Of a DNA stretch of 64,000 nucleotides, positions 4,051 to 27,879 are shown in pieces. This DNA comes from Eukaryota sp. GEM-RC1. Taxonomy: Eukaryota. The notes beneath the pieces were generated by a model. The model had not been told where the DNA came from and did no database searches. It saw only the letters and a list, made by a program, of their open reading frames with translations. The stretch is from assembly GCA_040285855.1 (NCBI GenBank), contig JAUFOQ010000010.1, positions 1,612,001-1,676,000 on the forward strand, read 5' to 3'. Numbering within the stretch: position 1 is the stretch's first letter; each line of letters begins with the position of its first letter. A program made the position numbers and the translations under genes.

Positions 4051-4174
4051 TATGATGTTGTTCTTCAGCTATGCAATATATACACTATGATCCCAAAGTT
4101 GAATGTAAGTACTGTCAATTTGTCCTCAATGCCCATTAATTGTTTTACTTGGGTACCAAGTGATCAAGACAATT

Positions 4175-6010
4175 ACCTTGATTATTGAAATTTTGTACAC
4201 CAAGAATAGCTAAAAAATTGACTAACAATTTTGAAAATGCAATTTTGAATATGAAATTCTGAGTAGTGAAAATTCCTTCCTCCACTGAATAGAACTACAC
4301 ATATTATAATAATCAATACAATGTAAAGAAACGCGTCAAAAATGAATCTTTTGATTAAATCCAAACGAGATAACAAATCTAAGTTCATCTTTCATTGAAA
4401 TCGTCTTAACCAATATCCATGAGAAACACGCGTGTTGTTGTCCTTGTAATGCTAGATCTACACGTAAGTCTGAGAAGTTTACCTTCTGATTCAATGATGA
4501 CGTGATCATGAGGTTATTACTAGCACTGAAAACTCCCAGAGTAAGTAGAAGATTTGTTACCATATATAAATGGTAACGGCTAAAGTCATAAAGCACGTCA
4601 TCTTTTGACCCTAGAAGTAGTACTTGATGATCGTTGACAATGAAAGACAGAAGAAAAAGACATTAAAACAAGTCATGACGAGGACCAATAGACTCTGAAG
4701 AAAGATAGGTAGGAGAACCAAGGAAAGTAATAGTATTACTTCCACAAGTACACGCAAAGATCGATGACGTGTCATTTGGATTTGATGACGTGTCACTTAG
4801 GGTACTGGGTAACCACATTCACCACTAGTGAGTAATCTAATAGTAAGCACCGAGAAGTAGAATAGATCTAGTATTGGAAGAGAGAAGAAGTGAATTAGTT
4901 GGAGTGAAGAACTAGAGAGATGAAGGGGTGGTAGGTTCCTGAAAACTTCTGATCTTTTGGGGAGTGTTAATATTCCTTAGTGTTTCTGAGAGATTGTGTA
5001 GGAGAAGTGAAGTGGGATTTAGCTTCAGCGTTTGAGCAAGAGGGATCGAATTGGCTTCTGTTTTGAACAGCAGTGCGGTGTATAAAGTAATTCATCTCGT
5101 TCTCTTGCAAGGATCTAGTTGGAGGAAAAGAATGACGTGACTTCTCTGTCCTTGAGGGGGGAGGGAGATGGCGATCGATGTAATGCTCATAAGGAAGTAA
5201 AGATCGACGAGAAGCAGGAATTGAAACAGAATAAGCTCCGCTAAGAGAGAGTACGCAGTTGATCCAGTAGTGGAAACCAAGGGAAGCAATAAGTTACCGG
5301 AAGAACATGATTGTCTAGAACTCGAGGGCGTTTAGAAGGAGGTCTTTTGACATTATGTAGTCGTGTTGGAAGTGATAGTAGAGAGTTCAAAAAAACTATA
5401 TCATTTCCTACTCGGAATTCTGCTCTCCTGAGGTTGTCCTCAACCAGTCTCATGTCTCCTACTACTGCTTGGCAGTTCTTCTATTGGAAATTAAGGTCCT
5501 TTTCGACTTTTGTTTCTCTATTGACGCCTTGTGCTATCGGTATGGGCCTATAAGTGATTTCTGTCTACTTGATTCAAATGATTCATCCCTTGAACAAGAT
5601 CATATTCTAGTAACTGCCTTTCACAGGTTTATTCAGTTGTTCCTCTGGTTTGTCATCATCCTTCAATGATTCTTTACTAACACGTACTAACGCTTCACCG
5701 ACTTTGTTACACTCAAAGTACTCGTACAACTTAAGAACTTGCACAATTCATCCTTCAAATTTCATCATATCACTGCTCTATACTTCTACTCTGTCATTTT
5801 GCTCTCAGTGGTACTTCATTCTTTCTTCACTTACAGTATTTTTTGATTAGTTAGTGGTTATTGTGTTAGTAATTCGATGTTCTACCAACTTCTCTTTTGT
5901 CTACTTCAACTTTGTGTCATCAAGTTGTACTGATTCTCAGTACAACCATTCATTGAACAGTATTCTATTCTATGATGAAAGCTAATTTTCATCATTTCAT
6001 TGAATTTGAA
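4175..6010 (-). repeat. Dispersed ~1.8-kb repeat family R, copy 1 (inverted)
   Basis: Reverse complement aligns by eye with 8365-9738 and 25315-27128, e.g. gtagttctattcagtggaggaaggaattttcactactcagaatttcatattcaaa and cctccttctaaacgccct. Confidence 0.85.
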
Positions 6011-7934: not shown

Positions 7935-8364
7935 TTTTGGACATTGAGGATTTTTAAAAGATGTGCTGGCTCGTCCAATGACGGGTTGATAAGAAATTTT
8001 CCAACGCTGGCTGGATGAGGGTGTAAATTATGTCGAATGATATTACATTATCCGAAGTACGAATATTCATGTCTAGGTTAGCAAACCGTTTTCATCTTCA
8101 CCAAGAATATAGTTAGTGTGGTTTTCATATGATTAGTAAAATTAAAAGAAAAAGTACCCAATCAATTTTCTCCTAGTTAGAAAAAAGATCCACTTATCTA
8201 ACATGCACCAAATATATGGTATATTCTTGTTCTTGTTCAATAGATAAAGCATTTTAATCAAGTAGACGTACATTAGAAGTCGAAGTTCAAACTGATAGCT
8301 CATGGTATCAATAAAGAATCAAAAGTCACAGCATACATTAATTTCCGACAGAAATATTTCCAAG

Positions 8365-9738
8365 CAGTAGTAGGAAACACGATGATGTATGAGGAGACGG
8401 AGAACCTCAGGAGAGGCACTCAAAGTGGTCCACTTTGAATGGTCTTGAATCTCAGACTTAGTCATCAAGACTCTTGATGACTAAGTCTGAGATCCACTTT
8501 GAGACCAAACTCTCTTCTAGAACATACTAATGTCAAAAACCCTCCTTCTAAACGCCCTACGGTTCTAGATAATCGTGTTCTTACAATATCTTGTTGCTTC
8601 CCTAAGTTGCCACCACTGGACCAACTCCGTACTCTCTCTCCCAGCGGAGCTTGTGTTGTTTCCAATCCTGCTTCTCGTCGATCTTTCCTTCGATATGAGC
8701 ATTACATCGATCGCTGTCTTCCTCCCCCCTCAAGGAGAAGGAAATCACGTCATCCCTTTCCTCCAACTAGGATCTTGAAATAGAAGGAGATGAATGACTT
8801 TATACACCGCACTGCTGTTCAAAACAGGAGAGAGTTCGATCGCTCTTCCTCAAACGTTGAAGCTAAATCCCACTTCACTTCTCCTACACAATCTCTCAGA
8901 AACACTAAGGAATACCAACACTCCCCAAAGTTCAGAAGTTTTCTGAATCCTACCAAGCTTTCATCTCTCTAGTTCTTCACTCCAATTATCTACTTTTTCT
9001 CTCTTCCAACATTAAATCTATTCTACTTCTCTGTACTTACTATTGGCTTCTACTCACTAGTGGTGAAACTAGTTACTCCTCAGTAAGTCCTCCCTAAGTG
9101 ACACGTCATCGATGTTAGGTGACACGTCATCGATGTTAGCTGGTACTGTCAGTAGTACGACTTTTACTTTCTTTGGTACTCGTTCCTATCTTTCTTGATA
9201 GTCCATTGATCTTTAACATGTCTCACTTCAATGTCTTTTTCTTCTGTCTTTCATTGCCAACTACCACTTCCAGCATTCAAAGGTGACGTGCTTACTGACC
9301 TTTGCAAACGTCATAATCTATATATACTAGTTTCCAGTGATATTACTAACCCCATGATCACGTCATCATTGAATCAGTAGATAAACTTCTCAGACTTGAA
9401 GATCTAGCATTACAAGGTCTGCAACACGCGTGTTTCAACAGAAGATGACGTGATTTGTCCGTCTTTGAGTGGTTGAGAGTTGTGAAACAAGTTGAACTGA
9501 TCTTTGTCGAAAAAAAGTTAATAATTTTTAAATTAGTAGTTCAAGCAGTCAGTTTAAGTTCAGTGGTTTTTATTTTTTAAAATTTATCTATTATTGTGAT
9601 ATGTGTAGTTCTACTCAGTGGAGGAAGGAATTTTCACTACTCAGAATTTCATATTCAAACACTTTGTCTATTTTTCAATTTGTGGTCAACTAATTGTAGC
9701 TATCATTGGTCACAGAAAATTACAATAATCAAGATAAC
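8365..9738 (+). repeat. Repeat family R, copy 2 (5'-shortened)
   Basis: Colinear similarity to 25900-27128 and inverted similarity to 4175-5450; shared 3' end cacagaaaatta...aatcaagata. Confidence 0.85.
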
Positions 9739-10399
9739 AAGTACCGTTTAGAGTTGAGGCTGTAATCGCATCAGGGACAGGAGAGGCAGCAGCAAAAGCA
9801 ACACTGAAATCTTGTACCATATTCTAAGAAACTGTTTTTACATGCAATTAAATCAGAATAAGTTGGATTGATGTTGAAAAATTAAATGTCATATGTTTTA
9901 ATGGGATGTGAATGCATGGTAGCAAGAAGCATTCTTAAAACCCCCCGCATACTTTTGTAATTCAAGTTGAGATAATATCTCTCTAAGAAGTGACCACACA
10001 TTCCTTTTTGTAACAACTACACAAGCAAGAATTAGTTCAGTACGTTTGAGAGGACGTCTTAGCAAGTGAAGATGGATAAGAATCAACAAAGTCTGCTGAA
10101 CATGGACACGTTTAGAGGGAGGATGTGTGGATGAAGACAATACTGACAGTTCATCAAAGTTAGACATCACAGAGGAGATACTGGAAGGGGTGAACGACTT
10201 CTTTTGAACAAATATTTAGTACGAGGCGCAATCATTGATGACGAAGAAATTTTACACAAAGGAAACCCATGAGAACGTTTTTGAAGCTGTTCATCTGCTA
10301 AGTCCTTTGTCAAATCAGAAGGATACAAGAGAACTAAGGGAGGAAGAGAAAGTTTAGTAATACCAGACGTTTCTTCAATTTCATCACTCACCGTTTTTT

Positions 10400-10990
10400 T
10401 CTAGGGTCTTTTACAATGAACGTTTGTATCCAATTGTATCCAATTGGCGAAATAAACGCGAGATGCTGAAATTAGAAGAGTTCCATAAAACCTCTCAACA
10501 AATTTAGAAGCCCTCCTCAGCCCTCCTGTGATTCCAATTTAGTTTTATAGCGAATATTTGAAATATCTTTTGCTGTTAATAAAACTGCTTCATTATTGGT
10601 TCTTGCTTCTTTATCTGAGTTGCAACAGTATTTTTTTCGGAGTAGAGCCGAGCACACATGATTCTTTCAATTTGATTGGGTGATACAACTCTATGAACAG
10701 AAACAGAAGTTTTACCAGCTGCTAGCATATGGTTGTGTACTACATTTCTGGATTCAACCTTCCAAAGGTCGTCGTTTTTCTGGAGTTTAAGGTACAGCTT
10801 AAAAGCACATTGCGTAACTCTTGTCTTTGAACGTCGTCGTGCAATGTCATTGTTCTCATAAACTCGATCAGGTCTATGGACAGAAGCATAGGAGCATAAA
10901 AGATAAACACGTCCACGGCATTCATTACCACCATCGCTACGGAGAGAGAAACCACTATCACCGGCCCACTTTTGCAGAGAGTTCACAGCA
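10400..10990 (-). mobile_element. MULE/Mutator transposase remnant (FAR1-type DNA-binding domain)
   Basis: WAGDSGFSLRS...LCS...RRSKTRVTQCAFKLYLK...WKVESRNVVHNH matches the FAR1/WRKY-GCM1 zinc ribbon (C..C..HNH). The DDE core was not seen. Confidence 0.7.
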
Positions 10991-11399
10991 TCTTCCTAGG
11001 ATTCAAAAGACATCAAATTACATGGAACCGGTGTTGTTGGATTGATTGTAGGGTCCTCCTTATTTAAGACGGTATTTTGGTTTAAGCTCATATTTATGAA
11101 TAATAAAGAGAGATAATTGAAGGTCAATAGTAGAATCACCAGGAGATTCTTTTTCAACGTAAAGTTCATTGAAAAATTCATCTCCAAGTACAGACAATTT
11201 GAAAACTGCAGTAGTAGCATCTTCAGGATAAAAAGAAGGAACCATTACCATTACATTAGAGAAATACATTGGAGTAATATCCTTTTTTTATACGACCTTC
11301 TTTTTTCTATTAAATTTCAAAAAAATGATGTTTTGATATTACTCATCAGAATTAAAGATAAGAAATACAGATAATTTAGTATTAGATAACAATCCTCTA

Positions 11400-11785
11400 C
11401 ATTTCTGATAACAATGTACCTCTTAATAATATAAACGAAATTTTTGCAGTAGGTCTACCAAAATCAGAACGAATGCCGGTTAATTGTGAACTTTGCATGA
11501 ACATTTCTAATTGTATCACAAATATATTCAGTTTTATCAATATTTAAATGTAGAAGAGTGCAATTTATTCCGTCGAATAACAATCATAATCCTACTGACT
11601 CTGGATTTTGTGTTCTCGAATATATTCGAATTTTGTTTGATAGCTTTGATCCTAATGTCGTCATAGGTTGGACTGCTGTTAATAATGTATTAAGCAGCAT
11701 TACTGTTAATATTTCATTGGCTCGCAGTACAATTTTGTTCTGCTTGTGTTTCCATAAACGACGAAGGTATCTGTTCCAATCCTGA
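11400..11785 (+). pseudogene. Ulp1/C48-like protease domain remnant, copy 1
   Basis: FIPSNNNHNPTDSGFCVLEYI, paralogous to 13190-13360. Confidence 0.5.
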
Positions 11786-12569
11786 TTGGGTAAAAGTCAC
11801 TGATCCTCATTGGAAGAAGAAGTTACAGAAGGAAGAGAAAGAATTAAAAAGGAAATTATGGATCATAATCAATTAGATCAAAATGAAAATCGAGATTTTA
11901 CCGAAGAATGAACCAGCCAGTTGCCATTCTTGAAAGAAATATTGAAGAACAACAAACTGTAAATAATTTTGAATCTTTTTCTGGAACTGTTGAATTGTCA
12001 CATTCACCCGCCCATGACACATGCAAATTCAAGACCAGAGAGCCAGCTGGTACTCCTCCTCAAAAAAGATGAAAAAGTAGTGTTAGTAATTGAACAGTAC
12101 CCTTAATAAACTTAACGGAACGAATTCAAAAGTGCTCTCACAAAAAAGTCACAGAAGGGTTCCGTCCCCTCATCACTCCCCCAAAGTTGATGCCTCGTCG
12201 ACTCCACGTGCTCAGGATTCTGTTCCTCATGTTGGTGTACAGTCCGTAGATGCTCACATCACTCCCACCGTGGACCCTGATGTAGTAGATCTATGTGATT
12301 GTGACGAAATTTTCAGTGGTGTAAAAAAAAACAAATAAATGGATGGGAAAAGATGTAGTTGATTATACTTCACCAACACAACAAGTTGTTTCTGAAAGCC
12401 ACGAATGGATGAAATTTATTAAATAAAAAATAAAATTTATATTTAATAAATGCGCTTAACACTATTTACCAAGTATTCTAATTCTTTCCGTCTCTGATTA
12501 TAAATATCAGAAATAGATTTATTATTTAAACTTGTAAAGATAGCTACGTCGCGAAATCTCAGACTCCAA

Positions 12570-13420
12570 GTGATTGTGGAATTTATGTCATTGTATATGT
12601 TGAAAAGTACTTACAAATTCTTACAACACATGAAAGTTTGTCTAATCTATCGATTGATTTTTTTGCAAAAAAAAATTGCATTGTGTGAACTCAACAATGA
12701 ACTTAATGCTGCAGATCTCCGTAAACAGCTTCAGAAATTGTGTACTTATGTTTACGATCAATTGTTCATCAAATATTCCAAATTACTTGTGGAATCAAAA
12801 GGTTTAATCTTTTATGACTATACAATTAGGCCAACTGATTTATATCCGTTATTGTATAATGACCAACCCTATGATAAATATCCATTTTCAGAATTTTTGA
12901 TGAAGAAATTCTTCCAATGTAGTCAAAAGAAACACCAACAAAGGCTACTTGTTCCGGTCAATAGTGCAATGGGTGATCTTAATGCTGATGGTCGTCATTG
13001 GGGTTTAATTATTCTGATCATTTCATCTCATACAAGTCATATTTTATTCATTGATCCGACCTACGTTGAGGATGATTATGCCAGAGAATTTCCTGTTAAC
13101 CAAACGCAAGTTGCACCAACTTCCTCCAATTTATTTTCAATTGTTTCACAAAATTATTCAGTTTCGTCCTTGAAATCAGTGATATACGGTTTATTCCATC
13201 AAATAACAAACATACTGTTACTGACTCTGGTTTTTGTGTTCTCGAATACATTCAACTTTTAATGAATTTAGATCAATCTGTGGTCATAAGGTGGACTGAT
13301 GTTAAAGAACTGCTGGGTAGTACCACTATTGATGTTCATGTGTCTCGAAATCTAATTTTGGATCATTTTGAAACTTTTAGTCCTGTTGATTTGTCGTATA
13401 TACAACAAAACGTTTGTTAA
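12570..13420 (+). pseudogene. Ulp1/C48-like protease domain, copy 2 (frameshifted)
   Basis: LLVPVN...GRHWGLIIL...ILFIDP, then in another frame (13193-13420) IPSNNKHTVTDSGFCVLEYIQLL: the H..D..(C) order of C48 proteases. Confidence 0.6.
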
Positions 13421-14600
13421 AAACGTTTGTCTTCAATTCTGACAGATGGAATTTCTTGTTGCTTAGTTTTAATGAGAAAAGATTTAGTTGATGAAGACGG
13501 AAATACTTTCAAAGATTTTACTGCTAAATCTCTTGGGACTTCGGAAAGATACATTCACTCTTTATCAAATGAGAATATTCAAGAATTACAATTGAAGGAA
13601 AAAAGAATTGTAGGTATCGATCCTAATGAATATGATTTAATGTATTGTGTTTCGGAAAAGACAGTCACTGGGCTTGTAGAAGAAGATATTTCTGATGAGA
13701 ATCCTCTCAAAAACGATTACACTCAGAAATCAGAAGTAAGAAAAAAGGAGGAATTAAGAAAAGTAAGAAATAATTAGAAGATTGGAAAAATTCCAATAAT
13801 GATGTAAAATCAAAGCGCAAGGCTAAGCACAAATGGAAGAAGTTTAATTACACAGCTGGAGAAAGAGCTTACGATAGAAAATCTGAAAATGAGAAACTAA
13901 GAGAATTTTCTATTGATTCACCAGATGAAACTGTCACTGAACGACAACTTAAAGATTTTTTGGTTCTCCATCCTGATAATATTATTGTAACATGAAGACA
14001 TGTCGTTAACCAATTCTCCAGAGCTGTATCAAATGGGGAAAGAAAGTCGTGTTTCAGTGACACATTTGGAACATATATTAAAGAAGCTGAACGATATAAT
14101 GTGTATTTGAGTTCTTTTTACGAAGATGACTGGTTTAGAAAGAGGAAACTCCAAATATATTCCAATAACCAATGATTGGAGAAAAACATGCTTGCTTGAA
14201 AAACGTTCGAAATGAGACTTTGTCTAAGGACAATTGCTATCATTCATTTAATTACAGATGAAACAATAATTTGTCAGACTGTGACGTTTATTCCGTATAA
14301 CCTGAAGTTGTTATTGTAATATTTATTCTCTAAGGGGATTGGAGCTCAAAAGGTAAAACCAAAAGGGATAAAACCTCTACTGTTAGAGGAGTGGAAATCC
14401 GGAAAATGTTGAGAAGTTACGGGTACCAAATTTTTCTGGTTGATGAATATTGAACAAGAAAGTGCTGTTCAAATTGTGCTAACGAAACAACAATTATTTG
14501 TGGTGTTTGACCTTATGCAAACGTCATCAGATGTAAGAAGTCAGAGTGTCAGAAATGTTTCGGAACTCAAAGTGTTGGTTCCGTATGTAGTTTTTTCTGA
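13421..14600 (+). pseudogene. Fanzor (eukaryotic TnpB-like RNA-guided RuvC nuclease), N-terminally truncated and inactivated
   Basis: Manual translation across stops and frameshifts gives ILTDGISC; RIVGIDPNEYDLMYC (RuvC-I); KFNYT; FGTYIKE...SFYEDDWFRKRKLQIYSNNQ*LEKNM; GDWS (14334); GVEIRKMLRSYGYQIFLVDEY*TRKCCSNC (RuvC-II E plus CxxC, 14388-14477); VIRCKKSEC. The RuvC-III NRD motif is absent. Confidence 0.85.
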
Positions 14601-14700
14601 ATTAGTTGTTCCCAATTGAAAAGTTGAAATATTTGAATTTTTGATCAATACGAAATTCGGAGTAATAAAGTGAATAGCGGGTTTTTTTATTTTTTTGATA
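14555..14700 (+). ncRNA. Candidate omegaRNA scaffold / right end of the Fanzor element
   Basis: Called from position (3' of the Fanzor ORF up to the junction with host gene sequence) plus a small stem cggaac(14561-66)/gttccg(14578-83). Inference only. Confidence 0.35.
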
Positions 14701-17029
14701 CGTATTGCTTCCCTTCGGATTGCTTCTGCAACAACCTCTATTCTCTACAAAAGACAACCTTCTTACTGACGCTGTCATTACCTACGATGACAACTCTTTC
14801 CACTGTCATTCCTTCGTTGTCAGTGCTTTCAGTCCTATTCTTAAGGAGAAGGGTCTGGAATCTACCACATTAGAGTTCCATCTAATTCCTTTTCTTACAG
14901 ATTCTGATATCTTCTTCTCAGTCCTATCAACTCTCTATGGACAATCTCTTAATGTTACTCCTGAAAATGTTACATCTATCTCTTTCATTGCTTCTCTTCT
15001 TCAGTTTCAGGAGTTAAGTCAGTTTGTTACTGAGAGAATGACAAAAGGGTTGGGAAATTTTGGGGATAACAATTTTAAATTGGATTCACAAAATTTAATT
15101 TTAAAATTGTAGAATCTTGCCCTAAAGACGTACGTGTTTCTTACAAAAACACGTCTATCACTTTGAACTCTGTCTTATTGATTTCATTTTCAAAAATGTT
15201 TCAGAATTTAATTACATGTGAATTTAAAGATTCTGCTGTGAGAAATTTTGAATATTCTGATGAATTTCCGGGTGTTTCTGAACATGTTTTTGGTTTGTTT
15301 TTCGGACTTATTCACTATGAGAATTCTGTTGAATTTAGTATTTCAAATATTTTGGAGTTTTTTCAATTATCTGTTTATTTCCAAGTAGATCAGTTGAAAT
15401 TGGATTGTAAAAACTTTCTCGTTTCGAATTCTTTTTCAAGAGAAGAACTTTTTTATCTTTTGAAAACTTGTAACGACAAGAATTAATTCTACTTCATTGA
15501 TCAAAATACCGAGATTTTTTCAATTTTTTCAAATATTGACAGTCCACCTTTCCCCCTAAGAGTTACTTTTATTACTTTATTATTGCCTGTTGTTGATCCT
15601 TTTGGTTGTTTAAATGTTTAATTGAGCTATACAAGAATGAATATTCTTTAGATCCAAAAACCAATGAACTATTAAAATTTCCAGAGGAGTTTCGAGTTGA
15701 GTTTTTCAAAATATTCGAGCTATTAGATTCCACTAGTGATGATCACTTAAATTCCACGTTGTTGAGGTGGTCAACTTATATTTTTGAAAACGTTAAAAGT
15801 TTTGCAAATATTCCTCCAGATTGGTTTCTATGGACCTTACAAAAGAATTCTAATTTTTTTACAGATTTAAATCTTTTTGGTGATTGTTTTCTTTCTATTG
15901 TTAAAGTTGAGTCGTTACAGAATTTTCCTCATTTATGTTTACCAAAGAATCTTCTTGAACTTCTTTGTTCAATTCTTCCTGGTGATTTCTGCGTGTGGCT
16001 GGGAAAATGTCTGGTGAAGTCTTGGAAGAATTCTGAAAAATTGAATTTTTCTTTGACAAATGATTCTTTTTTCAAATGTATCTCATTAATTATGGAAAAA
16101 ACTGATTTGAACGTGGTGCAGTTTTTAAATTCTCTGATGGAAATCAACAACGATAGTAAACTTGGATCAGCTATCACAACTTTCATTGCCAAGACTTCTC
16201 TTGATTTGTTGTCATCACGTGAAAAAGATCTCAAAGCTGGTAATCAACTGTATTCAGATGGATTGCAGTTTTTCTATGGAAATTCTGTAACTCAGAATTA
16301 CGAAAAGGCTTTTACTTTGTTTAATGAAGGTGCTAACCACAATCACGTTGATTGCATTTTCAAATTAGGAAGTTATTACTACTTAGGTTTTGGTGTTAAA
16401 AAGAATCTCTTCAAAGCCGTGGAATATTTTAAAAAATCTGCTGAATTGAAAAATGTTTTTGGAATTCTTAATTTGGGATATTGTTTTTGAATGGTAACGG
16501 AGTTGACAAGAATGAAAATGAAGCTCTACTTTGGTTCAATAAGGCGGCAGAATTAGGAAATTCTCAAGCATTTTATGGATTACATCGCTGTTATTTTGAG
16601 GGATTAGGAGTTGAAAAGAATGTACAAGAAGGTCTTAATTATTTGAAATATGTTATTTCCTTAGGTGATCCTGACGCTATGAATCTTATGGGATGTTTAC
16701 TATGGGACGGTAATTGCATGGAGAAGAACCTCTATGACGCAATTAAATATTTTAAATTGGCATCGGACGGAGGATCGTCTCATGGAATAAGAAACTTAGG
16801 CGAAAAGTATCGTTCCGGTCTTATGGTGCCAAGGAACCGGCAAAAGGCACTTGAATTGTTTATACAATCAGCAAACTTAAACAATACTTCCGGCATTCAA
16901 AGCTTAATCACTTTTTACAAAGAAAGTGCTGTACCGGATCCAGATTTACTAAGTTATTGGGAAAAAAAGAAGGTAGAATTTAACGGTTGTAATGCTACTG
17001 ACGTTTTGAAAAGAAGAGAATTGTTGTAA
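14698..17029 (+). pseudogene. BTB-BTB-Sel1-repeat gene, copy A (5' end lost)
   Basis: Two BTB domains (FHCHSFVVSAFSP; LNSVLLISFSKMF) and C-terminal Sel1 repeats (YYYLGFGVKKNLFKAVEYFKKSAE). Lacks the first ~39 codons of copy B; TAA at 15484 where copy B has CAA; frameshifts. Confidence 0.85.
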
Positions 17030-17740
17030 TATTTAAAGTTTTACGTCTATCAATACAATGATTTCCGAATCTGTTGGTTCGAAAAAAATTGTATATTTTA
17101 GATTCTGCATTAATGAACCACTGAACTTACTATTTTTAATGTGGGAACGTACGACATTGCAAATGTACCATAACATGCCCCGTTTCACCTCACCACTTTA
17201 TTGTGTCATAATTCTGATTATGTATTGATATACATAATATTCGCGGATCTAAAGGCCAAAAATCTTGAAGATGTCACAGTTTCGCTTTATGAAAGATGCT
17301 TTGCTGCTGACTATGCTCTTATTGTCGACCATTCTTCAGAATATACATATAAACTCCTTTGTGAAAAGGGAGAGTCCGATATGTAAGAAAGACTGTGGTA
17401 AAAGGAGGAAATGGGGTTGCAACTTCAGTGTTGGAGTGATTCAAACCGAAACTTTTAAAACTGGCAAGTTGTCAGCCAAAATACGTCTCATAATCATCAG
17501 CCGTATACTTTTTTGTTCACTAGTAGGAGTTGTACAGTACAAAGATCTTTTAAACAACACAATTGAGACTGAAACGTTCAACTTCAAAACTTCAGGTGAA
17601 CAACTCATTCAAGATTAAAAACCATTATTAAACCTACATTGTAGTAAACGTCATTGCAGCTCAGATATTGACATTGTCCAAAGTTTTCATGAAATTTATA
17701 TACTTGGTTCAAAAATCGTGATGTTATTTCTTCTCAAGCT

Positions 17741-17900
17741 TTGCATTTCATTGATTTGTTAAAGGTTAATGAAACAGTTACGTGTGTTCATCTCCGAGAC
17801 AGCTACATTGGTGATGAAGGTGTTAGAGCATTGGCAGAGGCGTTGAAAGTTAATACTTCAATAACCATCCTTGATTTAAGGTGCAACTATATTGGAGATG
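17741..17900 (+). pseudogene. RNI-like LRR fragment (two 28-aa repeats)
   Basis: IGDEGVRALAEALKVNTSITILDLRCNYIGDE, the same repeat type as in 35500-36372. Confidence 0.8.
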
Positions 17901-18310
17901 AAGTCTTCGTGGACTGGACGAAGAGTGGAAATGTGGTTTTCTTCGCCAGCTCTTGGATAACACGAAAAGAGTAGGTTCACTTTGGAAGAAAGAAGTACTA
18001 TCAGTATTTGTTTCAGTATTCTGCTTCATCAACGCAAATCAAAACAGGAATCACCTGGAATCCTTGTATACTTTTTCTTTTTTGGGCATCATTTCAATGT
18101 TAGTATCTCACTGCCACTTTGTTTGATTCAATTATTACTACTACTTTTATAGTTCTGAATCCATTGATTATCTCTAATTGTCTTTCTATACATTTACTCC
18201 AAAGTAACTACTTCGACCTTTGTATTACTACTAATTAACAAACCTTAGTTACACTCTAGTATTTTCTAAGCCCAGGATGTGACTATTTAAGAGCTTGAAG
18301 ACGTCACCCT
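17897..18310 (-). pseudogene. 5' end and upstream region of an RRM-LRR paralog
   Basis: MKQNTETNTDSTSFFQSEPT resembles MKHNTHTRTDETSSFHSEPT (61105). The upstream tgacgtcttcaagctcttaaatagtcacatcc resembles 34072-34102. Confidence 0.7.
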
Positions 18311-18806
18311 CTGTTTCCAGCAAATGACTTTTTGATCATTCGTTATCTAAATAGTTAGTTCCAAACTGATTTACTTTCTATTTTTGAGACTATTATTACG
18401 TTTCGAGTACTTCGCCAAGTGTCTCATGTCGTAGTCAGAGATATATACGATGTTGTCTTCTGGACCTACCCAGGGTATGTATCTATTTGGGATACCATCA
18501 TCATGGAAGTGATGATCCTCAATTGACCGAACTAACGTTAGCTCTTCGATCGTCTGGGGAGAGACTCATCTTACAAGCTAAAAGTTCTTGTTCGACAAGA
18601 AGGTTCTGTCATTCTTCGAGTCTTCTAGAGTGCTCTTTGGCGAGAGATTCCTGTTACTTGGGAATCTCTTCAGTCACTTCAGTTGACCTGTTATGTGTAA
18701 CTGGAACGACATCGTGAATGGTTTCTGTATTAAAACTATGGTTTGGTTCTACGAAAACAGAATGATGTAATTGGATCTTCTTTCAATTGACTGATACGAT
18801 TACTTT

Positions 18807-21230
18807 TTAGATTATCAATTTCATTGTAGAATTCAGCTTCATTAATTCAGTTAGTGCTTTGGTACATTCATCCCCAATATAAATACTTTCAAAACGAAGT
18901 TCTCTAACATTCAAAGAACAATTTAGCCGAATAGAATCAACTATCATCAAAAAATCTTCATCATACAATTGGCAATAAGATAAATCAAGATGAGTCAATG
19001 ATGTACTAGTCTTAATATAGTCACACAAGACTTGAAAAGCCGCTTTACTGAAACTACACTTGTTGATACGAAGGTGTATTATTTCAAGAGAAAGTAAAAC
19101 AGAGATACTCTTAGTAGTGATTTCAGTGTGGAATTCGGGCGAAAAGGAGAAAATTCCGGATTGTGAGTCAGTTATGTGAGGCGAAATATCGACATCTATC
19201 AAAAAATTATTGATGGACAGAATTTGAAAAATGGCAACAATAGTGGAAAAATTTGTAAAGGCTGGAATTCCTTTACATTGAACACATTTAATAGGAGCTT
19301 TCGATTTAAAGGCTTTTAAAAGTAATCGTAAATCAGTGTTTTTAATCTTGTCCGCGTACCTAATAATACCACAAGAGAAATCAATAGTATGAGGTAATAC
19401 TTCAATAATTGGTGGTGAGTGGTGAATAGAAAACGGTTTGAAGATATCCAAAAGAGTTTTAAATCCAATTGAAGAATTACTGAGATTAATCGTTTTTAAA
19501 TTAGAATGTAACTGAAGTGCATCAATTAAATTCACGAAATTCTCATCCAATTGTTCTTTACAAGAGGAATCATTGTACAAGTAATCAAATGGATCAGAAC
19601 TTTGCATACCACTGAAGTCAACAGAAGTCAGGGAGCTATTTCCACTGATTAAATCACACAAACTAGCAATTGCATCAACCTCAAAACAACACTTCTTAAG
19701 AGAAAGCTCTTTTATACTATAGTTTTCACAAAAGACTGTAAACGGGAGATCTCTTCAGCAGTAATCTGAGTAGAGCGTTCTGGGGAAAAACAAATCACCC
19801 CATGTTCAAAATCCAAATGATGAGCAAAAATTTCAATTTTTGGTGGTGATTTATGAGTAGAATACCGTTCGAAAAGATTCAGAAGGAATTTGAACCCGAT
19901 ACCAATGTGACTGAGATCAACCGTTTTTAAGTAGGAACTCGACCAAATGACATTAATAATTTTAGAAATACTTTTTCATCCAGTTGACAGAAACTGAAGT
20001 CTTTTAAAGTCAAGTCGTTATTAAACTTAATGAAATCACACAAAGCAATTGTCGATTCATCAGTAAAACGACAGTTTTTAGAGTAAGCTGGTGGATAGCA
20101 AATCTATCTGCAAATGACTGTAGAGAAGAAATTTCGACGATAGTAATCTTATGGGAATAAAGTAACTTTGGAGAAAAACAGAAAACGCCTTTTTAACGTC
20201 AGTGAAGTGATGCCCAAAATCAATTGAAATAGGAAATTGCTCTGTACACACTGTTTCACAATCACTAATAAAAGAGCTCAAACTCTTGAAACTATACGGC
20301 ATGATAACTTTTTTAATGACTTGATGTTCTTTCAGAGCTTCGACAATTAGTGTGAATTCACTAAAAATCATCAGGGAACCAGGAAAATTTAAAATCAGTA
20401 ATGATTTGTTTTTACGTAACATTTTGCATAAAGCTCCATATTCTTTATCTTCGAAAGTTCCCATATATCCAGGATATCCATGTAGCAACAAATCTTTTAA
20501 AGAAGAGTTTGACTCAACAGATTTAAAAATGGGTGTAAATACCGACCCAGTGTGCGTGATTTCAAATCGTTTTAAAACCGTGTTATGTTTTAAAACATCA
20601 GCAATATCATTAGCATCAAATTGTACATGTACCATATTCAACTCTTGCAGGGATAAATTACACTTTAAAGGAGCAAAAACAGAAGGAAAGATTTTTCCAC
20701 TTGGTATCACTAAATTTTCAATACTGGAACTGCTAAATAAGGGAGCCAAAACTTCAGTAAAAGAAGACAACATATGGGTTAAGTTAACTTCTTGCAAAGA
20801 GTTACAATTAGCCAGAGCACTAATCATTGGCAGATAATCAAAACGTAACAGATGGAATCCAATGGGCACAAGACAAAACTTTTTTAAAAGGCACTTACTG
20901 GAAGAGAAGATCTTAGTTAAAAGATCAGCTTTTGTTGAAGTAGATATATTAACGTGTAATGCTTCAATGGTGGTACTTTCAAGTATATACTTGGCGGTGA
21001 CCTCATTAAAGGTAAAGTTGGGACCGCTTAGTGACTTCTGATAAGGGAAAGTTGACTGATATTGGGTATGTACAGTGGACTTTGTGGCTCCTATTGTTTG
21101 GTAATTTATGTATATGAAACTCAAATCTGATTTGACATTTGTTTCTCTAATGACACTGTTTACTATCGGTTTGGGCTTGTATGAGTGATTTTTGTCTGTT
21201 TGATTGGAATGTTTCCCTCATATGTGTTCT
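18807..21230 (-). CDS. Divergent RNI-like leucine-rich repeat protein, copy A (frameshifts at homopolymers; gene or pseudogene)
   Basis: ORFs 20078-21124 and 18807-19661 contain LTHLDLSYCQL, LKTINLSNSSIG and LQEVNL. Copy B supplies the open frame across 19700-20200. Start codon not determined. Confidence 0.7.
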
Positions 21231-21888
21231 GGTTATCCAGTTCCTATTTCAATGATCCATCCTTTAAACTACATCATAGTCACACTTTTCCATAAACATA
21301 CCATGAAGATCATGTTTATTGTCATACACACTATCTAATGTAGGAGAGACAGGAAGATGCTCTGCCCAGTTTGTAAGCTTCACTTGTAGTTTTGATAAAT
21401 CAGGGTATAAGTGAATTGTAGCTGACTGGTATTTCGGTAATAATCCCAAAATTAAATTAATTAATACTATTTTCAAAACGTCAGTAAATATACAACCCTG
21501 TATTTCTATTTTATTTGTTACCCAGTAACTTATATGTAAAATAATGATTTCAAAAGCTTTGTTATCCCTAAGTGTGTTTTATGAAGACAAAGCTTCAACA
21601 AGGTTCGATTCGAAGGAATCTTGCTTTGATGACATTGAGTATTAGATCATCTTTTTTTTATTTTCGAATAAATGTACGATATATTAAAAAACTTATATGT
21701 AACGATTCAAATGTCTGTGTGTCTCTGATGTTGTACAAAGTGATTAGTTTATCAATTTCAGTAATATTGCTTACGTTTGCTGATTGTAAAAGCAAGTCGA
21801 GTGGTATTTGACTGTTCCTTGGAACCACAATATCTAAATGATATCTTACGTCTAAGTTTCTGATTCCATAAGCCGGTCCTCCTTCAGC

Positions 21889-22421
21889 TTATTTAAAAAA
21901 GTTAATTGTAATACATTCATTCATATTCTTCTCCATATCATCGCTCTTTGAAATGATGCTAAACTTGACGACTTGGCTGTCACTTATGTGTCCCAATGTT
22001 TCCTGGTAGATGTCGTGTATATACTCGTAGTTCTCTTGTGCACGAGTTTCTGTCATTAACATCGTCAGAGCTGTTGACAAGCTGAAACAAGTTTCCCTCC
22101 CAAATACTGACAGAAATTCGATGTACGCCGAAAAACTGAGCAACACCATAATGCGTTTCTTAAAAAGTGGGTATATACTGCTCGTGTCTTGGTGTCGTCT
22201 GAAGGCCGTCGATTAAGATAGTTTATGTCAATTCCATGTACGGGTTCAATGCTAAGTCCCGTAGAGGTTTGTTGAATCAAATCAAGTTTGGTGAAAGAAA
22301 AATTTAGAAGGCAACCAAACTGAAAACCACAGTTGTTAATGGTGGAAATCTTCTTTCATCAGTGAATGGAATTATGTAACTCAATGCAAGTAACATGTAG
22401 GGACTAGGTCAAATTGAATGT
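21889..22421 (-). repeat. Dispersed repeat / unknown gene fragment also at 40366-40763 and 48344-48874
   Basis: RRPSDDTKTRAVYTHF vs RRKATDDTIVRAVYPYF, plus a shared ~95-nt block accacagttgttaatggt...caaattgaatgta. Confidence 0.6.
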
Positions 22422-24099
22422 AGAATAGGTATTGTGAATTTCATAGCTATCGCATACTATAGTACTCAAAAATTTCTTACCTTCACTTTTCATAAACTAC
22501 ATCGACATGTCTTCTTCTCTCCCTCGTTCCGTAAACGAAGAATTTAATAACAATGACGAACCCGAACCCGAAGTGTCTGCTCGTAATGACTCCATTGAAG
22601 ATGACGGTTCTAATGCAATTTCTGATGTTACTGCACCATCTCTCATCCATTCACCAACGTTTGTGAAGAGAACTATTGCTGATTCCTTCAATTATATCAA
22701 ACTTATATATCGGCTTTTATGATGGAACAGTGAACATCTTCATCCATCCTGATCTTAGTAACGTTAATGTAGTTCAGTTCATTGATTTAATGGTTGAACG
22801 TTACATTGTTGAATGTAACACTAACAATAAACCTCACGTAGCAAGGTCCGAGTTACTCCTGAAATATAAAACTACTGCTAACGCTTCTTATAAAATTACA
22901 TGACCACTGAGTTTGTTGACAAAGATTTATATGACCCTTCTAGCTTGTTATCATCTGAATCTTGCTTTATACAAGTCTCACCCAGAACTCTCAACCGTGC
23001 CGACTTCTTCGAAAAATGTGTTTGGAACACGAACGAAAACAGGCGGTCTCTATTACTTTAGAAGATTTGAAGGCTGTCGATAATCGGTGTGGTTGCTGCA
23101 GACGTTGCCTGACGCTCTTGGAAGTCATTATACGAGTCGGGAAGAGCAACCATGTGCTCTATTCCGTATTCTATTCGCAAACTGTTCACTCCAAAAGCGA
23201 CCAAACCAGTAGAGCAATTGACTGAAGATGGTGTGTTGGCAAAGAATGTTGCATCCTTTGTAGTTCAACGTCTCACTGTGCTTGACTTAAAGCGAAATGC
23301 ACGTGATAATCTTGGAAGCAAGATCCTTCTGGAAGAGATCCAGACTTATATTCTAGAAGGTCAGCACAGGACCTCCAGCCAAGCAGAATTGACGAACGCA
23401 GCACATATCAACTGCAACTCCAGTAGTAATTTGCCAGACAATCATCATGATCAGTCGAGCAATTTGTTCAACACAATTAACTTCTTCCTATCCTTCTTTA
23501 TTATACTGGCCTTATCGGCAACAGATATCTATATCTATACTTAATTCATCACTTTAAAGCAGCCACCATTGGGGAAGCCACTCTTGAATACGGTGAATCG
23601 ATGGACGAATCTTCGACGAATCCGCAATGTCTATAGTAGTCACGACAATCATGATTACGTACTGTTCAAGACAGAAAAGAACCATCTCTATTACTTGGCA
23701 ATGGAATGTCTCCACGTCCTGGAAATTGATCAACATAACGTGGTTTTTCACACATGATAGTGTAGTACAATAGAATTAGGTACAATCATAAATCACCTTA
23801 ATTTCATTCAATACTTTCCGTATAACTTCATCTTCCAACGACTCAAAGCATCAATATATTATTACTCTGTATATTGGCTGAAAAGAACAAGAAGAAACTC
23901 ACCAAATGAGCTTCTCTACAAAAGGCAAGGATCCCTCTGTGAAAAGAAAAAAACCCAATACCTCAGACCTAGAAAAGCTATTAGGGTCAACCCCTGACAA
24001 GGACAGTGTTGGCTTCCTCACCCCTCTCGGTGGACCCTCTTTTGGAAAAGACGATAAAACTTCAAAATCTTAAAAGGATGATGGTACTTCCAAATACCA

Positions 24100-24500
24100 C
24101 TTCTCAAAGCATTTATGGAAGGCCATTTTGATAGAATTAGTTCTGTATCTTTTCGAAACATCATTATAACTCTAACAAATTAGAAAGTTTTCCAGGTATA
24201 AGATCGATTTTTATACGAGACGATTGTAGAATTGACTGTTCTCCTGGCATTGATGAGACAATAAAGCAGTGTGGGAATAAGTATATCAAATTGCCCACTT
24301 AATGTCCGGAGATGAACCCGATAAAAGCCTTTGATGCAGTGCTAAAATGCAGAGTAGTTGATGCAGTAGAACGGTTTCCTTTGAGTAATCCAGTTGATTT
24401 GGTTAACAGTCAAATTCACTCACTGCAACAATATTCTAGTGTTTGGTTGTTTCGACAAGTAGGATACGATGATGGTCAATGCTATTCTTCGCCAACGGAT
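24100..24500 (+). mobile_element. IS630/Tc1-mariner DDE transposase remnant
   Basis: IFIRDDCRI (second D region) and YIKLPT*CPEMNPIK (LPxYSPxxNPIE motif). Confidence 0.6.
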
Positions 24501-25314
24501 TTTTTCGGTAATCACGGTTATTTTTTTCTTTCTTTTGATGATCTCCATGTCACCAGCCCAGAAGTAATGTATAAATATCAGTTGAAAGGGTTATATAACC
24601 AGAGAATCGCTGTCAATTCCACTTCAAAGGCTTTCAAACATTAGATTTTCGACAAAAAGACTACGTTTTCTGTCAGCTAACATCGATAGCGACATGTACA
24701 AGGAACATGTTCCCGTTCAGTCGAAACAAAAGCTAAGAACAATTTCTTTTGCTGATTTGACAGTAGAAAACTCTGACTGGGAAGCCTACAATCAACAAGA
24801 ATGGTCTGATTTGTATTCAAAAATTGACAAGATTTTCGGCTGTTGGTATACCATCTGTTCTGGAAATCTCGATTTCTATCTGGTAAATCGATCAGCAATT
24901 GTTCAGTTAAAAAAGAACATCAATGATTTGATAGACTGTGAGCTTGTTAGCCAACAAGACACTGTTATGACATCCTCTTAAAAGATCCACCGTAGATCTT
25001 GAAGTTCCCATGGTTTCACAACTGATGTTTAACAAAAATTTAAAAGAACAAAAAGAAGTAATATTGAAGACTGTTTTCAAGGGATCTGTTTTCTTAATTA
25101 TTTCCGTGATTTGAGCAATCATCCAGAATTATTGTTGATCTCGAAGTACCACATGTACTTTCCAATCGTAGTGTTTCTAATGAAGAAATGGTTAAATTAC
25201 AAATTCTTGACGTTCAAAGTGACCATATTTCTGAACATATAAATAGCCACTGACATTGTGTCCATGAGAAGGGTTTTAAAATGCAATAACGTGACGTATT
25301 CAGCACATTTGAAA

Positions 25315-27128
25315 TCCAATGTAATGGTGAAAATTAGCTTTCAACATAAAATAGAATTACATTCAATGAAAAGTTCTCTCGAAATTTAGTCCCAAAAAAT
25401 GATACAAAGACAAAGTGGAGAATCAATCTAACTTCGAATTACTACCAAAAGAACTACTACCAGAAGAACTACTACCAAAAGAACTACTACCAAAAGAACT
25501 ACTACCAGAAGAACTACTACCAAAAGAACTACTACCAAAAGAACTACTACCAGAAGAGGCTGTAAGTGAAGAAAGAATGAAAGAGACATAGTGAAGTATA
25601 AATCTGTGGTAACGGTGTAGTTTGTATAAGATCTTGAGTTGTACGAGTACTTTGAGTGCAACAAAGTCGGATCAGTGTTGCCAGGTGTTGGAAAAGACAC
25701 ACCAGAGGAACATTTCATCAGAGCTGTGAAAGAACGACAGTAACTAGGAACATAATGTTGTTTGAGGGATAAAGCATTTCAATCGAGTAGACAAAAATCA
25801 CATGTACAGGCTCAAATTGATAGTACATAGCGTCAATAGAGAAACATAAGTCAAAATGATCTTGAATTACCAGAAATAACTGCCAAGTAGTTGTAGAAGA
25901 AGAAGACGAAGACACGAGGACGTATGAGGATACGTAGAACCTCAAAACAGAAGGACTTGATGAGTGCGAGATTCACTTCAAGACTACGGTTCTCTCTTCT
26001 AGAACTTCCAACTACATACTAATGTCAACAGTCCCCCCTTCTAAACGCTCTCTGGTTCTAGATGATTATGTTCTTCCAATAACTTATGGCTTCACTTAAT
26101 TACCACATACACGTACTCTTTCTGCCGATGGAGCTTGTGTTGTTTCCAATCCTGATTCTCGTCGTTCTTTACTTACGTATGATCATTACATTGCCCTCCC
26201 CCTTTCCCTCAAGGAGATGTAAATCACGTCATCCTTCTCCTCCAACTAGGTCCTTGAAATAGAAGATGATGAATGACTTTATACACCGTGCTGTTCAAAA
26301 CAGAAGCCAGTTCGATCCCTCTTCCTCAAACGCTGAAGCTAAACCACACCTCAATTCTCCTACACAATCTCTCAGAAACACTTAGGAATACTAACACCCC
26401 CAAAAGATCAGAAGTTTTCTGAATCCTACCACCCTTTCATCTCTCTAGTTCTTCACTCCAACTATCTACTTCTTCTCTCTTCCAGTACTAGATCTCCTCT
26501 ACTTCTTAGTACTTACTATTGGCTTCTATTCACTAGTGGTGAAACTAGTTAACCCTCAGTAAGTACCCCAAGTGACACGTCATCAATCTTTGCCAGTACT
26601 GTCAGTAGTAATACTATTACTTTCTCTTTGGTTAAAAGATGACGTGGTTTATGACCTTTTGCAATCTACACGTGTTAACGAATCTTCTCTATTACTTTGG
26701 TTGTTTTCAGTGATAGTAATAACCCCATCATCACGTCATCATTGAATCAGTAGATAACGTTTTCAGACTTAAGTGAAGATCTGGAATTACAAGGGCATCA
26801 ACACGTGTGTTTCAATAGAAGATGACGTGATTTTTTCTTCTTTGAGTAGTTGAGAATTAAGACTGGTGAAACAAGTTGAACTGATCTCTCTTTTTTTTGA
26901 AAAAAGTTAACAATTTTCAACTTGTTGTTCTTTCAATCATTTTAATTTCAGCGCTTTTTTCTTTTTTTATTATTTTATTATTGATTATAATTGTGTAGTT
27001 CTATTCAGTGGATGAAGGAATTTTCACTACTCAGAATTTCATATTCAAAAGCTTTGTGTATTTTTTTAATTTGTGGTCAACTAATTGTAGCTATCATTGG
27101 TCACAGAAAATTAGATTAATCAAGATAG
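25315..27128 (+). repeat. Repeat family R, copy 3 (longest)
   Basis: Inverted similarity to 4175-6010 over its whole length; direct similarity to 8365-9738. Confidence 0.85.
25441..25557 (+). repeat. 15-bp minisatellite ACTACCA(A/G)AAGAACT, ~7.8 units
   Basis: Directly visible; ~5.8 units in the duplicate at 51893-51979. Confidence 0.95.
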
Positions 27129-27379
27129 TTATCTCACAAAGTATTGTTTAAAAGAGTTCTTCAGAATATCTTGTATATACCCAATCACAAGACACGAATT
27201 GTGATTGTCACGGTAAAAATATTCATATTTTTGTAGAGATTTATTTTGACCATTCATTTTTATATTCTTGGTTGTTATATTTTTGGCGGTTTGTTTTGTT
27301 TGATGGATTCTTTCTTTGAATAAGTTTGTTTCTTCTAACAACTTTTTGAGTTCCTGTTCCTGTTCAATCTTAATCAGCT

Positions 27380-27830
27380 TTGAGTTCTTAGCTCTTTTAG
27401 AAGCAAAATCTTTAACAACAACAGGGTGAATGACATTACTGAGAGGATAAAGTTGACTAGATTTAACAATTCCAGACATGATACCAGACATGATTACTAT
27501 CCGTCTCATTTCTACCTTTGATTGTAGAAGAAGTATTCTTGTCCTAGATGGATGCAAGATTCGTATTTCCCCACATTTTATTGATTGGATTAGAAAAACG
27601 GGGGCGCTGTAGTGGATACTCCCACCATGTTCCCCTGAATTTAATCCGATCGAACAGTTTTTCGTCAATTCCGCTGCCGTGTTAGAGATTTCTCGCATTT
27701 ACATCCAAACGTACCAACCTTTCAAAAGTTGCAAATTATTCTTACTCAAATGACTTACAACTGTTCAGCTATGTTTGAACATTCTGGTTGGTTTCAAGGC
27801 AAATATTACACATCAGGAAACCGATTGTTA
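27380..27830 (+). mobile_element. IS630/Tc1-mariner DDE transposase remnant
   Basis: Plus-strand ILVLDGCKI and WILPPCSPEFNPIEQFF. The C-terminal MFEHSGWFQGKYY resembles LFRQVGYDDGQCY at ~24450. Confidence 0.75.
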
Positions 27831-27879
27831 AATTTTTTTCAATAGTTTTTATTAATTGTTATTGTTAAATAATCAATAC

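Follow-up and report, generated by a model that had tools for sequence, protein, structure and literature searches.

The 64,000-nucleotide (nt) stretch analysed here (the window; positions 1,612,001 to 1,676,000 of the forward strand of contig JAUFOQ010000010.1, assembly GCA_040285855.1, Eukaryota sp. GEM-RC1) carries at 13424-14583 a dead, internally deleted fragment of a Fanzor1 gene, encoding a eukaryotic TnpB-like RNA-guided nuclease, which is about 80% identical to proteins of Skoliomonas sp. GEMRC. This organism, whose proteins are filed under Eukaryota sp. GEM-RC1, is referred to below as GEMRC; RCL is a second Skoliomonas, and gene models of both are given P numbers. The truncated Fanzor1 fragment is joined in frame to a fragment of an Ulp1-type protease gene, and we consider the locus likely (probability about 0.8) to be an internally deleted remnant of a multicopy mobile element whose intact members are predicted to encode one polyprotein. 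The window copy itself serves only to point to a Skoliomonas lineage in which Fanzor1 proteins are very large and multi-domain; the RCL and GEMRC gene sets contain members of it that are apparently complete.

In a six-frame translation of 12800-15400, all of the Fanzor motifs lie on the + strand in the expected order and over three frames, as had been proposed from the DNA alone in the original prediction. ILTDGIS (13436-13456) and VGIDPN (13610-13627) are both within a 116-amino-acid (aa) open reading frame (ORF; 13427-13777), the catalytic Asp codon of RuvC-I (13619-13621) being followed by Pro and then by Asn instead of Gly, as in SpuFz1. FYEDDWFRKRK..Y..Q (14116-14172) is in the second frame, and GDWS (14334-14345) and GYQIFLVDEY*TRKCCSNC (14421-14477) are in the third. 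The RuvC-II Glu codon (14445-14447) occupies the rearranged (Ealt) position, six residues before the zinc-finger CxxC, both in the window (VDEY*TRKCCSNC, 14439-14477) and in the relatives (VDEYRTSKCCSKC). Window GC content is 32-41%, which fits the Skoliomonas metamonads. The remaining features are listed in Table 1.

Table 1. Features of the Fanzor1-Ulp1 relic and its right flank (window coordinates).
Feature	Position	Strand	Remarks
Tail of Ulp1/C48 protease domain 1, Q-x-x-x-D-C-G catalytic-Cys motif	12539..12660	+	HMM match
Tandem second Ulp1-like domain (HWGL, DPTY)	12678..13417	+	1-nt frameshift at 13168
In-frame junction	13421..13441	+	KRLSS (post-Ulp1 linker) overlaps SSILTDG (Fanzor)
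Fanzor1 TDG segment and RuvC-I VGIDPN	13424..13627	+	60/63 identities to P0011 (13424-13612)
Lysine-rich lineage-specific insert after RuvC-I	13628..13845	+	1-nt deletion at 13710; stop at 13771
Helical region RuvC-I to RuvC-II (YT motif, FY..WFRKRK..Y..Q)	13846..14193	+	84% identity to P0002/P0006 over 13708-14193; 18-nt deletion at 13875; stops at 13993 and 14173
Decayed stretch	14194..14333	+	about 80 nt of extra DNA (14194-14300) shifting the frame; 9-nt insert with stop (14325-14333)
GDWS, RuvC-II Glu, first zinc-finger CxxC pair	14334..14486	+	stop at 14451
42-nt insert, 1-nt frameshift, last homologous residues NVSELKVL.P	14487..14583	+	frameshift-aware alignment
Left edge of tandem duplication	14698..14700		14698-28260 against 41144-54677, 98.9% identity, 26.45-kb spacing

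The call of a Fanzor relic is upheld by a hidden Markov model (HMM) of outside Fanzor-like proteins, against which the window pieces, joined by X, score 156.8 bits (E = 3.9e-50; profile positions 339-577 of 674), compared with 6.0 bits for the best shuffle (489 scored of 501 submitted). This HMM comprises 99 Fanzor-like proteins of at least 500 aa, each less than 42% identical to any Skoliomonas protein; though without members of the Skoliomonas lineage, it leans toward that lineage because its sequences were retrieved with Skoliomonas queries. Against Pfam, the X-read C-terminal piece reaches E = 0.019 with PF07282, under the cut-off, and the single-frame pieces give nothing at E≤0.1. A frameshift-aware alignment yields 217/270 identities to P0006 over 13640-14583. 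At 14583 homology to the relatives stops; the second CxxC, RuvC-III and the C-terminal knuckle are absent downstream, and an HMM of the C-terminal tail has no match in 13000-15000. The HMMs and the alignment thus agree with the earlier view of a dead copy without an N-terminus or RuvC-III: about 900 N-terminal residues and the entire RuvC-III tail are gone. An RC...C (14529-14549) previously read as the second zinc pair is part of the 42-nt insert and 1-nt frameshift within the segment FVECENVSELKVLGP, and the true pair is missing. Because the C4 finger and the RuvC-III RD (the Bao and Jurka motif) are incomplete, the window copy is classed as a relic descended from Fanzor1 and not as a functional member.

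Using the C-terminal piece as a query, nine proteins of 26 candidates were recovered, all from Eukaryota sp. GEM-RC1. P0006 matches SpuFz1 (8gkh) at E = 3.4e-12 and also PpFz1; a family profile of 132 sequences matches SpuFz1 at 1.5e-114, PpFz1 at 1e-111 and GtFz1 at 2.5e-75, with no Fanzor2 chain at E≤1. Structure prediction, which had been recommended as a check, was run on the relative P0064 (residues 270-1441; AlphaFold, mean pLDDT 66.7, high in the nuclease and low in the first 430 residues), and the best matches of the modelled fold are SpuFz1, PpFz1 and GtFz1 (E 8e-20 to 2e-13), with ApmFz2 (9b0l) at E 0.02. A Skoliomonas family nearer to Fanzor1 than to Fanzor2/TnpB is supported by sequence and by the predicted fold, and the Fanzor1-like character first suggested by the motifs is borne out. 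In NCBIfam there is no Fanzor-level match; guided_TnpB is weak on the relatives (24.5 bits, cut-off 100).

The family is like the Fanzor1 proteins SpuFz1 (8gkh/9ceu), PpFz1 (9cf0) and GtFz1 (9cer) in TDG, RuvC-I D-P-N, GDWS and W.RD; it also has in common with Fanzor1 the rearranged RuvC-II Glu before the zinc finger and a multicopy distribution with full and partial copies. As given in parts of the papers cited (PMC numbers throughout), SpuFz1 RuvC-I uses D383 and N385 (PMC10432273), and the Fanzor1 RuvC-I consensus is DPG (PMC10711439). The relatives differ in length—1180-1480 aa or more (up to about 1900), whereas the 99 outside proteins have a median of 666 and a maximum of 1033—and in the second zinc-finger pair (C..C..W.RD), which lies 68-78 residues past the first, compared with 26-29 in two outside proteins. 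The RuvC triad and zinc ribbon are common to Fanzor2, TnpB and Cas12f as well, but the fold match to ApmFz2 (0.02) stands against 1e-13 to 1e-19 for Fanzor1.

An insert after RuvC-I had also been suggested, and it proves to be shared: the DPN-to-YT spacing is 73-93 residues in 9/9 Skoliomonas proteins measured, whereas in the outside proteins (50/99 measurable) the median is 18 and the maximum 44. Judged by these spacings, the 55-75 extra residues are a trait of the Skoliomonas lineage. In a FastTree tree (114 sequences, 308 columns, midpoint-rooted), which was built without named Fanzor1 or Fanzor2 references and does not bear on the choice between them, the 15 Skoliomonas-type rows form one clade (support 1.0), within which the relic groups with family A (0.987). 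GEMRC has five or more families (A to E), with clusters of 13, 26 and 14 members; these sizes, together with the high identity within family A (rows mutually 88-96% identical), point to an apparently recent multiplication. Fanzor fragments are also found in S. litria (TZLM1-RC).

The span originally proposed for the relic missed an upstream Ulp1 piece (12539-13417), which matches the same elements. An HMM of the relatives' first Ulp1 domain matches 12539-12634 (iE 1.4e-7) and 12591-12764; only the Cys motif of this domain is retained, the remainder being unrecognisable. The second domain (12678-13417) is 86% identical to P0209 over 165 aa and 68% identical to P0229. It matches domain 1 at E 6e-6, has no Pfam match in the window, and has its catalytic Cys replaced by Ser (DSG) both in the window and in 13/13 relatives holding it. 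Over 12548-13435 the frameshift-aware alignment to the Ulp1 part of P0230 gives 217/289 identities and ends in KRLSS. The P0230 alignment ends at 13435 and the P0011 alignment starts at 13424 in the same frame, with a stop just upstream at 13418. The two-serine overlap likely marks the deletion of the linker, the PolB exonuclease and the REC lobe that the relatives' order would predict, and a single deletion within one element, at this short overlap, is the simplest reading. None of the HMMs for the 2A region, the exonuclease and the REC lobe has a significant match in the window, and the D(V/I)ExNPG/P motif is absent from its six frames.

Further upstream, 12100-12450 (+) is an open low-complexity Pro/Ser/Val-rich stretch followed by WMGKDVVDY, which is not detected by HMM and may be the decayed start of Ulp1 domain 1; a 16-nt AT-rich hairpin lies at 12414-12451. 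A second Ulp1-like piece at 11503-11960 (+), 58% identical to P0232 and with 73% DNA identity to 13133-13305, passes without a break into a zinc-finger piece of a family C Fanzor (90% identical to P0118 over 42 aa), and is another internally deleted element of the same kind.

The order of domains that an intact element would have is taken from the relatives. The window ORF just upstream of the relic, used as a query, recovers seven proteins of 214 candidates, all from GEMRC and 81-88% identical, and these are annotated as Ulp1 (PF02902) and/or PolB exonuclease (PF03104). P0030 (GEMRC, 1182 aa) has a PolB exonuclease at 83-246 ahead of the Fanzor (PF03104 39.3 bits, cut-off 23). A library search with P0030 gave 1110 matches at E≤0.001, and P0064 was recovered among the best 150 of these 1110. 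P0064 (RCL, 1473 aa; a cluster of four) has the same domain order, with PF03104 at 49.4 bits and PF07282 at 31.6 bits. Among the proteins compared, exonuclease and RuvC region are both matched only in P0030, P0064 and P0215. P0218 alone spans 2A, both Ulp1 domains and the exonuclease into the Fanzor1 N-terminus, and an overlap chain P0230-P0213 (94% over 453 aa)-P0065 (94% over 125 aa) extends to RuvC-I; for family C, no overlap of sequences completes the chain, P0106 and P0066 giving no BLAST match. In two RCL models (1473 and 1479 aa) the 2A motif, three Exo motifs and full RuvC triad are in one chain. The order that we infer begins with a leader and 2A, continues with an Ulp1 domain bearing the active motif and, optionally, a second one (Cys to Ser), and leads through a low-complexity linker to the exonuclease, Fanzor1 and the CCHC knuckle; RCL models are without Ulp1 and knuckle, and family B models start at the exonuclease.

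The Fanzor1 N-terminus (profile 10-70) directly follows the exonuclease, without a spacer, in 16/19 exonuclease-bearing models tested; this segment is found in 15 models at iE≤0.004 (18.0 bits, against 5.6 for the best shuffle). The expected intact relatives are represented by six gene models with all three RuvC motifs: the full D-E-D triad and C4 finger are present in P0037, P0044 and P0045 (3/102 GEMRC models) and in P0064, P0215 and P0216 (3/5 RCL models), the D-to-TS spacing of P0064 (281) being slightly over the published 125-275. Family A models have RuvC-II and RuvC-III and start just past RuvC-I. The C-terminal CCHC knuckle is found in 4/6 relatives checked. Among the family B models P0010, P0023, P0027, P0030, P0033 and P0034, four have the same end point and the other two have a change of frame in common at a different point, a pattern suggestive of shared frameshifts, homopolymer errors or recoding.

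A D(V/I)ExNPGP core is present in 13 proteins (11 GEMRC, 2 RCL), always upstream of the other domains—directly before the first Ulp1 in the 11 GEMRC proteins, and before the linker and exonuclease in the two from RCL; P0217 has a one-residue variant. The leader ahead of it is variable (42-311 residues) and often tandemly repeated. The motif is likely a ribosome-skipping 2A/StopGo peptide, a putative assignment, since the motif alone is insufficient for skipping and activity varies with upstream residues (PMC3708506). PF03104 exceeds its curated cut-off in P0030, P0024, P0031, P0064, P0076, P0085, P0143, P0160, P0183, P0210 and P0212-P0214. Profile searches of the Protein Data Bank (PDB) place the exonuclease with B-family polymerases (E 1.8e-10), and Atlas features give the same identity (0.95), with the best clusters eukaryotic; whole P0064 has no usable Atlas match. 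The three acidic motifs of such exonucleases are ExoI (DxE), ExoII (NxxxFD) and ExoIII (YxxxD). They are intact in 3/3 long RCL models (P0064, P0215 and P0217); P0183 has ExoI and ExoII and ends before ExoIII. The canonical set is found in 0/34 non-RCL proteins, each judged over the part that it covers; many of these are fragments, and one has ExE at ExoI. Ulp1 domain 1 exceeds the PF02902 cut-off in P0209, P0211, P0212 and P0143 with DCG or HCG intact, and the relatives' domain has the His (HW), Asp and Cys (Q..xDCG) of the catalytic triad.

If this architecture is correct, an intact polyprotein (2A, Ulp1 domain(s), PolB-type exonuclease, Fanzor1, CCHC knuckle) would cut DNA as directed by a guide RNA. 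StopGo at D(V/I)ExNPG/P would quite probably shed the variable leader and so give a fixed N-terminus whatever the start codon or upstream transcript, as has been proposed for retrotransposon 2A peptides (PMC3708506). With somewhat lower but still favourable odds, Fanzor and an omega RNA from the right end of the element would cleave sites that are empty or from which the element has been excised; an occupied copy, as the template for repair, would allow the element to be restored or to spread, and a transposase encoded elsewhere would act in trans. The homing of TnpB is an analogue of this step. That Fanzors possibly aid transposons in trans is raised in the discussion of PMC10432273. Tentatively, an exonuclease with surviving acidic motifs (RCL) might trim the 3' ends left by RuvC and block simple re-ligation, with the GEMRC domain acting as a non-catalytic nucleic-acid binder. 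The first Ulp1 domain might, at slightly short of even odds, strip the products of the element of SUMO or ubiquitin-like tags through which they are silenced or degraded, the second being a Cys-to-Ser pseudo-protease; alternatively, Ulp1 might self-process the polyprotein. Mutator-like elements (MULEs) have captured Ulp1, an analogue for an Ulp1 that counters SUMO-dependent silencing. The exonuclease and Ulp1 steps are the weakest of the mechanism, and the window copy is capable of none of these activities. It is conceivable, though we lean against it, that in Skoliomonas one mobile ORF uses a virus-like 2A to release a Fanzor1 equipped with an active exonuclease of the proofreading type and, in GEMRC, also with a deSUMOylase, and that full-length copies are still active. 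If so, it would be a first in three respects: as a natural nuclease-exonuclease fusion among Fanzors, as a Fanzor polyprotein with StopGo, and as a Fanzor lineage described in metamonads.

A number of observations weigh against a single polyprotein element and its proposed working. A search for terminal repeats and target duplications in 9500-15000 finds only short chance-level pairs, both relic ends being deletion junctions, and no transposase is tied to the element. The architecture derives from automated AUGUSTUS-pipeline gene models in which introns are not visible. None of the GEMRC models is complete from 2A to RuvC-III, 0/6 family B models with RuvC-II reach RuvC-III in frame, and the Fanzor1 N-terminal segment is undetected by HMM in all three RCL models. 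AlphaFold models of the exonuclease domain were weak twice (pLDDT mostly below 50; mean 44); a fold search with this domain listed only B-family polymerases, and because none reached E≤0.001 we give it no weight as support. The trimming step is weakened by the fact that the 3' overhangs used in homologous repair are not what a 3'-5' exonuclease produces. Fusion of T5 exonuclease to SpuFz1 lowered editing (PMC13434818). Lastly, the N-terminal half of family A is in no database model, and the double-Ulp1 models chain to family C/D-type Fanzors.

Because of these last two points the junction may join two related elements of one lineage, the Ulp1 end of a family C/D-type copy having met the nuclease half of a family A copy through a larger deletion or recombination in the relic nest. 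The fused architecture would then be real, but family A may lack Ulp1, like family B and the RCL models. The second Ulp1 with a family C piece 1.6 kb upstream fits such an origin, as does the shuffling of Ulp1 and exonuclease variants between models (P0218 versus P0240); yet the two halves share strand and frame, overlap at a common Ser-Ser and have decayed alike (217/289 and 217/270 identities), and we regard a union of two elements as unlikely, if worth keeping in view. It is decidedly improbable that the long fusions are gene-prediction artefacts, in which false introns linked neighbouring ORFs of a multi-gene transposon, the Fanzor itself being an ordinary protein of 650-750 aa. The models are indeed automated and fragmentary (3/102 GEMRC models with all three RuvC motifs), but the spacer-less order of exonuclease and Fanzor recurs in 16 models with four exonuclease variants, three RCL loci keep the order and are 91-93% identical along their length, and the window DNA itself has Ulp1 and Fanzor pieces in one frame.

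A viral origin, in which a large DNA virus or Polinton-like element integrated, supplied the PolB exonuclease, the cysteine protease and 2A, and left these elements as remnants that spread with it and not as cargo of a stand-alone transposon, seems rather improbable. Large eukaryotic viruses commonly carry Fanzor1 (PMC3627910), StopGo is found mostly in viruses (PMC12846837), and one Atlas cluster near the exonuclease includes Nucleocytoviricota; against this, the best Atlas clusters are eukaryotic, no relative is found in viral contigs (in scans that detect close matches only), the scanned window ORFs give families of host or transposon type (BTB, Sel1, LRR, SET, FAR1 and DUF659) and no capsid or polymerase domain, and 2A-like motifs also occur in non-LTR retrotransposons (PMC3708506). 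It is scarcely credible that the gene is alive and that its stops are due to short introns, errors of assembly or a non-standard code. Long-read repeat assemblies carry indels and some of the inserts hold GT...AG pairs, but the four aligned stops (13771, 13993, 14173 and 14451; TAA and TGA) sit at Gln, Gly, Arg and Arg positions, which fit no single reassignment, and are therefore lesions rather than signs of a variant code; the inserts are not taken for introns, since the relatives are without them and their removal would leave the aligned stops in place; and the missing N-terminal residues and RuvC-III tail also argue against a living gene.

The preferred reading, a remnant of one polyprotein element, combines features of several known systems. 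An N-terminal exonuclease, Ulp1 and 2A set the Skoliomonas relatives apart from the 99 outside Fanzor-like proteins, in none of which an exonuclease, Ulp1 or NPGP match is found. The proofreading exonuclease of B-family polymerases (PF03104; archaeal PolB, Pol delta, RB69/T4) is alike in Pfam match, PDB profile and the RCL Exo motifs, but no polymerase domain comes next and the Fanzor N-terminus stands right after the ExoIII helix. Non-LTR retrotransposons with 2A/StopGo (L1Tc, Ingi, CR1, L2, Crack) likewise have D(V/I)ExNPGP near the N-terminus of a mobile polyprotein (PMC3708506), and some also carry deubiquitinase domains (PMC13405545), whereas the Skoliomonas models are without a reverse transcriptase or APE domain and the payload is a Fanzor. 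DnaQ-like exonucleases occur in LTR retrotransposons (PMC6338049).

Among the literature matches listed, no paper joins Fanzor and Skoliomonas, no Fanzor with 2A appears (the supplementary peptide tables of PMC13405545 may list such motifs), and no title indicates a natural Fanzor-exonuclease fusion. Skoliomonas with transposons returns only the genome paper, and the Fanzor and Ulp1 matches are unrelated by title. Term searches find no mention of an exonuclease in the main text of PMC3627910, PMC10530073, PMC10711439, PMC10432273 and PMC13565253; 'metamonad' is absent from the four in which the term was searched; the supplements of PMC10530073 and PMC10432273 (one image file apart) contain none of the domain names; and PMC12338488 gave no match. 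The Ulp1/exonuclease/2A-Fanzor architecture was thus not found in the literature searched, and an earlier description may exist in subscription papers or Repbase, which lie outside that search.

Known Fanzors are compact single-purpose nucleases; a lineage enlarged by a PolB exonuclease, SUMO-type proteases and 2A would show what a Fanzor element recruits for the eukaryotic nucleus. One species retains the Exo motifs, and its sister species has lost them but not the domain; this natural experiment makes the role of Fanzor for its element testable by domain deletion. Exonucleases have been added to RNA-guided nucleases by engineers with mixed results, so an evolved fusion is of practical interest.

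The window lacks the right end of the element, where an omega RNA would lie. Rfam has no match in 11000-16000, three candidate RNA stretches show no folding beyond shuffles (z -0.07, -0.31 and -0.64, with -0.31 for 14194-14333), and the relatives' DNA is found in none of the viral or metagenome contigs scanned. A FAR1 DNA-binding domain relic, typical of Mutator-like elements, lies at 10576-10986 (-; PF03101 E 1.8e-5, under the cut-off). A family D-like Fanzor relic, from WFxRRR to the C-terminal knuckle, is present in both copies of the tandem duplication (28195-28900 and 54596-55201, both -); in the copy at 28195 its final codons adjoin a SWIM zinc-finger relic, weakly matched (E 0.021), that may be left from a Mutator-like transposase. 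CCHC and SWIM fingers and FAR1 are MULE features (PMC6446971), and Mucorales Fanzor1 elements have MuDr-type ends and no transposase (PMC3627910). The FAR1 and weak SWIM relics and the CCHC knuckle hint at a Mutator-like carrier, but no transposase core, terminal inverted repeats or 9-bp duplication is found with the element, and the link is a lead only. Other transposon remnants are a frameshifted hAT-type transposase relic at 38069-38640 (+; DUF659 E 1.7e-11) and a weak gag-aspartyl protease match at 32242-32826 (+; E 0.032), possibly from an LTR retrotransposon.

The tandem duplication (14698 to about 37300 against 41144 to about 63500) is mostly 95-99% identical, with BTB, Sel1, LRR and SET genes variously decayed, and because it starts only at 14698 the relic is single-copy in the window. 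The BTB gene at 14698 is cut at its 5' end, being without the first 38 codons of the second copy (ORF 41029-41910); an exact look-up of the window BTB ORF in the protein collection gave no match. Position 14698 was considered as the right end of the element and rejected: the last homologous position lies 115 nt before it, and the window has no left flank to match. The duplication includes a 605-aa ORF (34555-36372 and 61102-62847, +) that contains an 84-nt (28-aa) leucine-rich-repeat array as well as an RRM. Dispersed repeats in both orientations, 74-84% identical (4167-5746 against 8243-9737, 25622-27134 and 52062-53568), likely represent a BTB-related paralog family.

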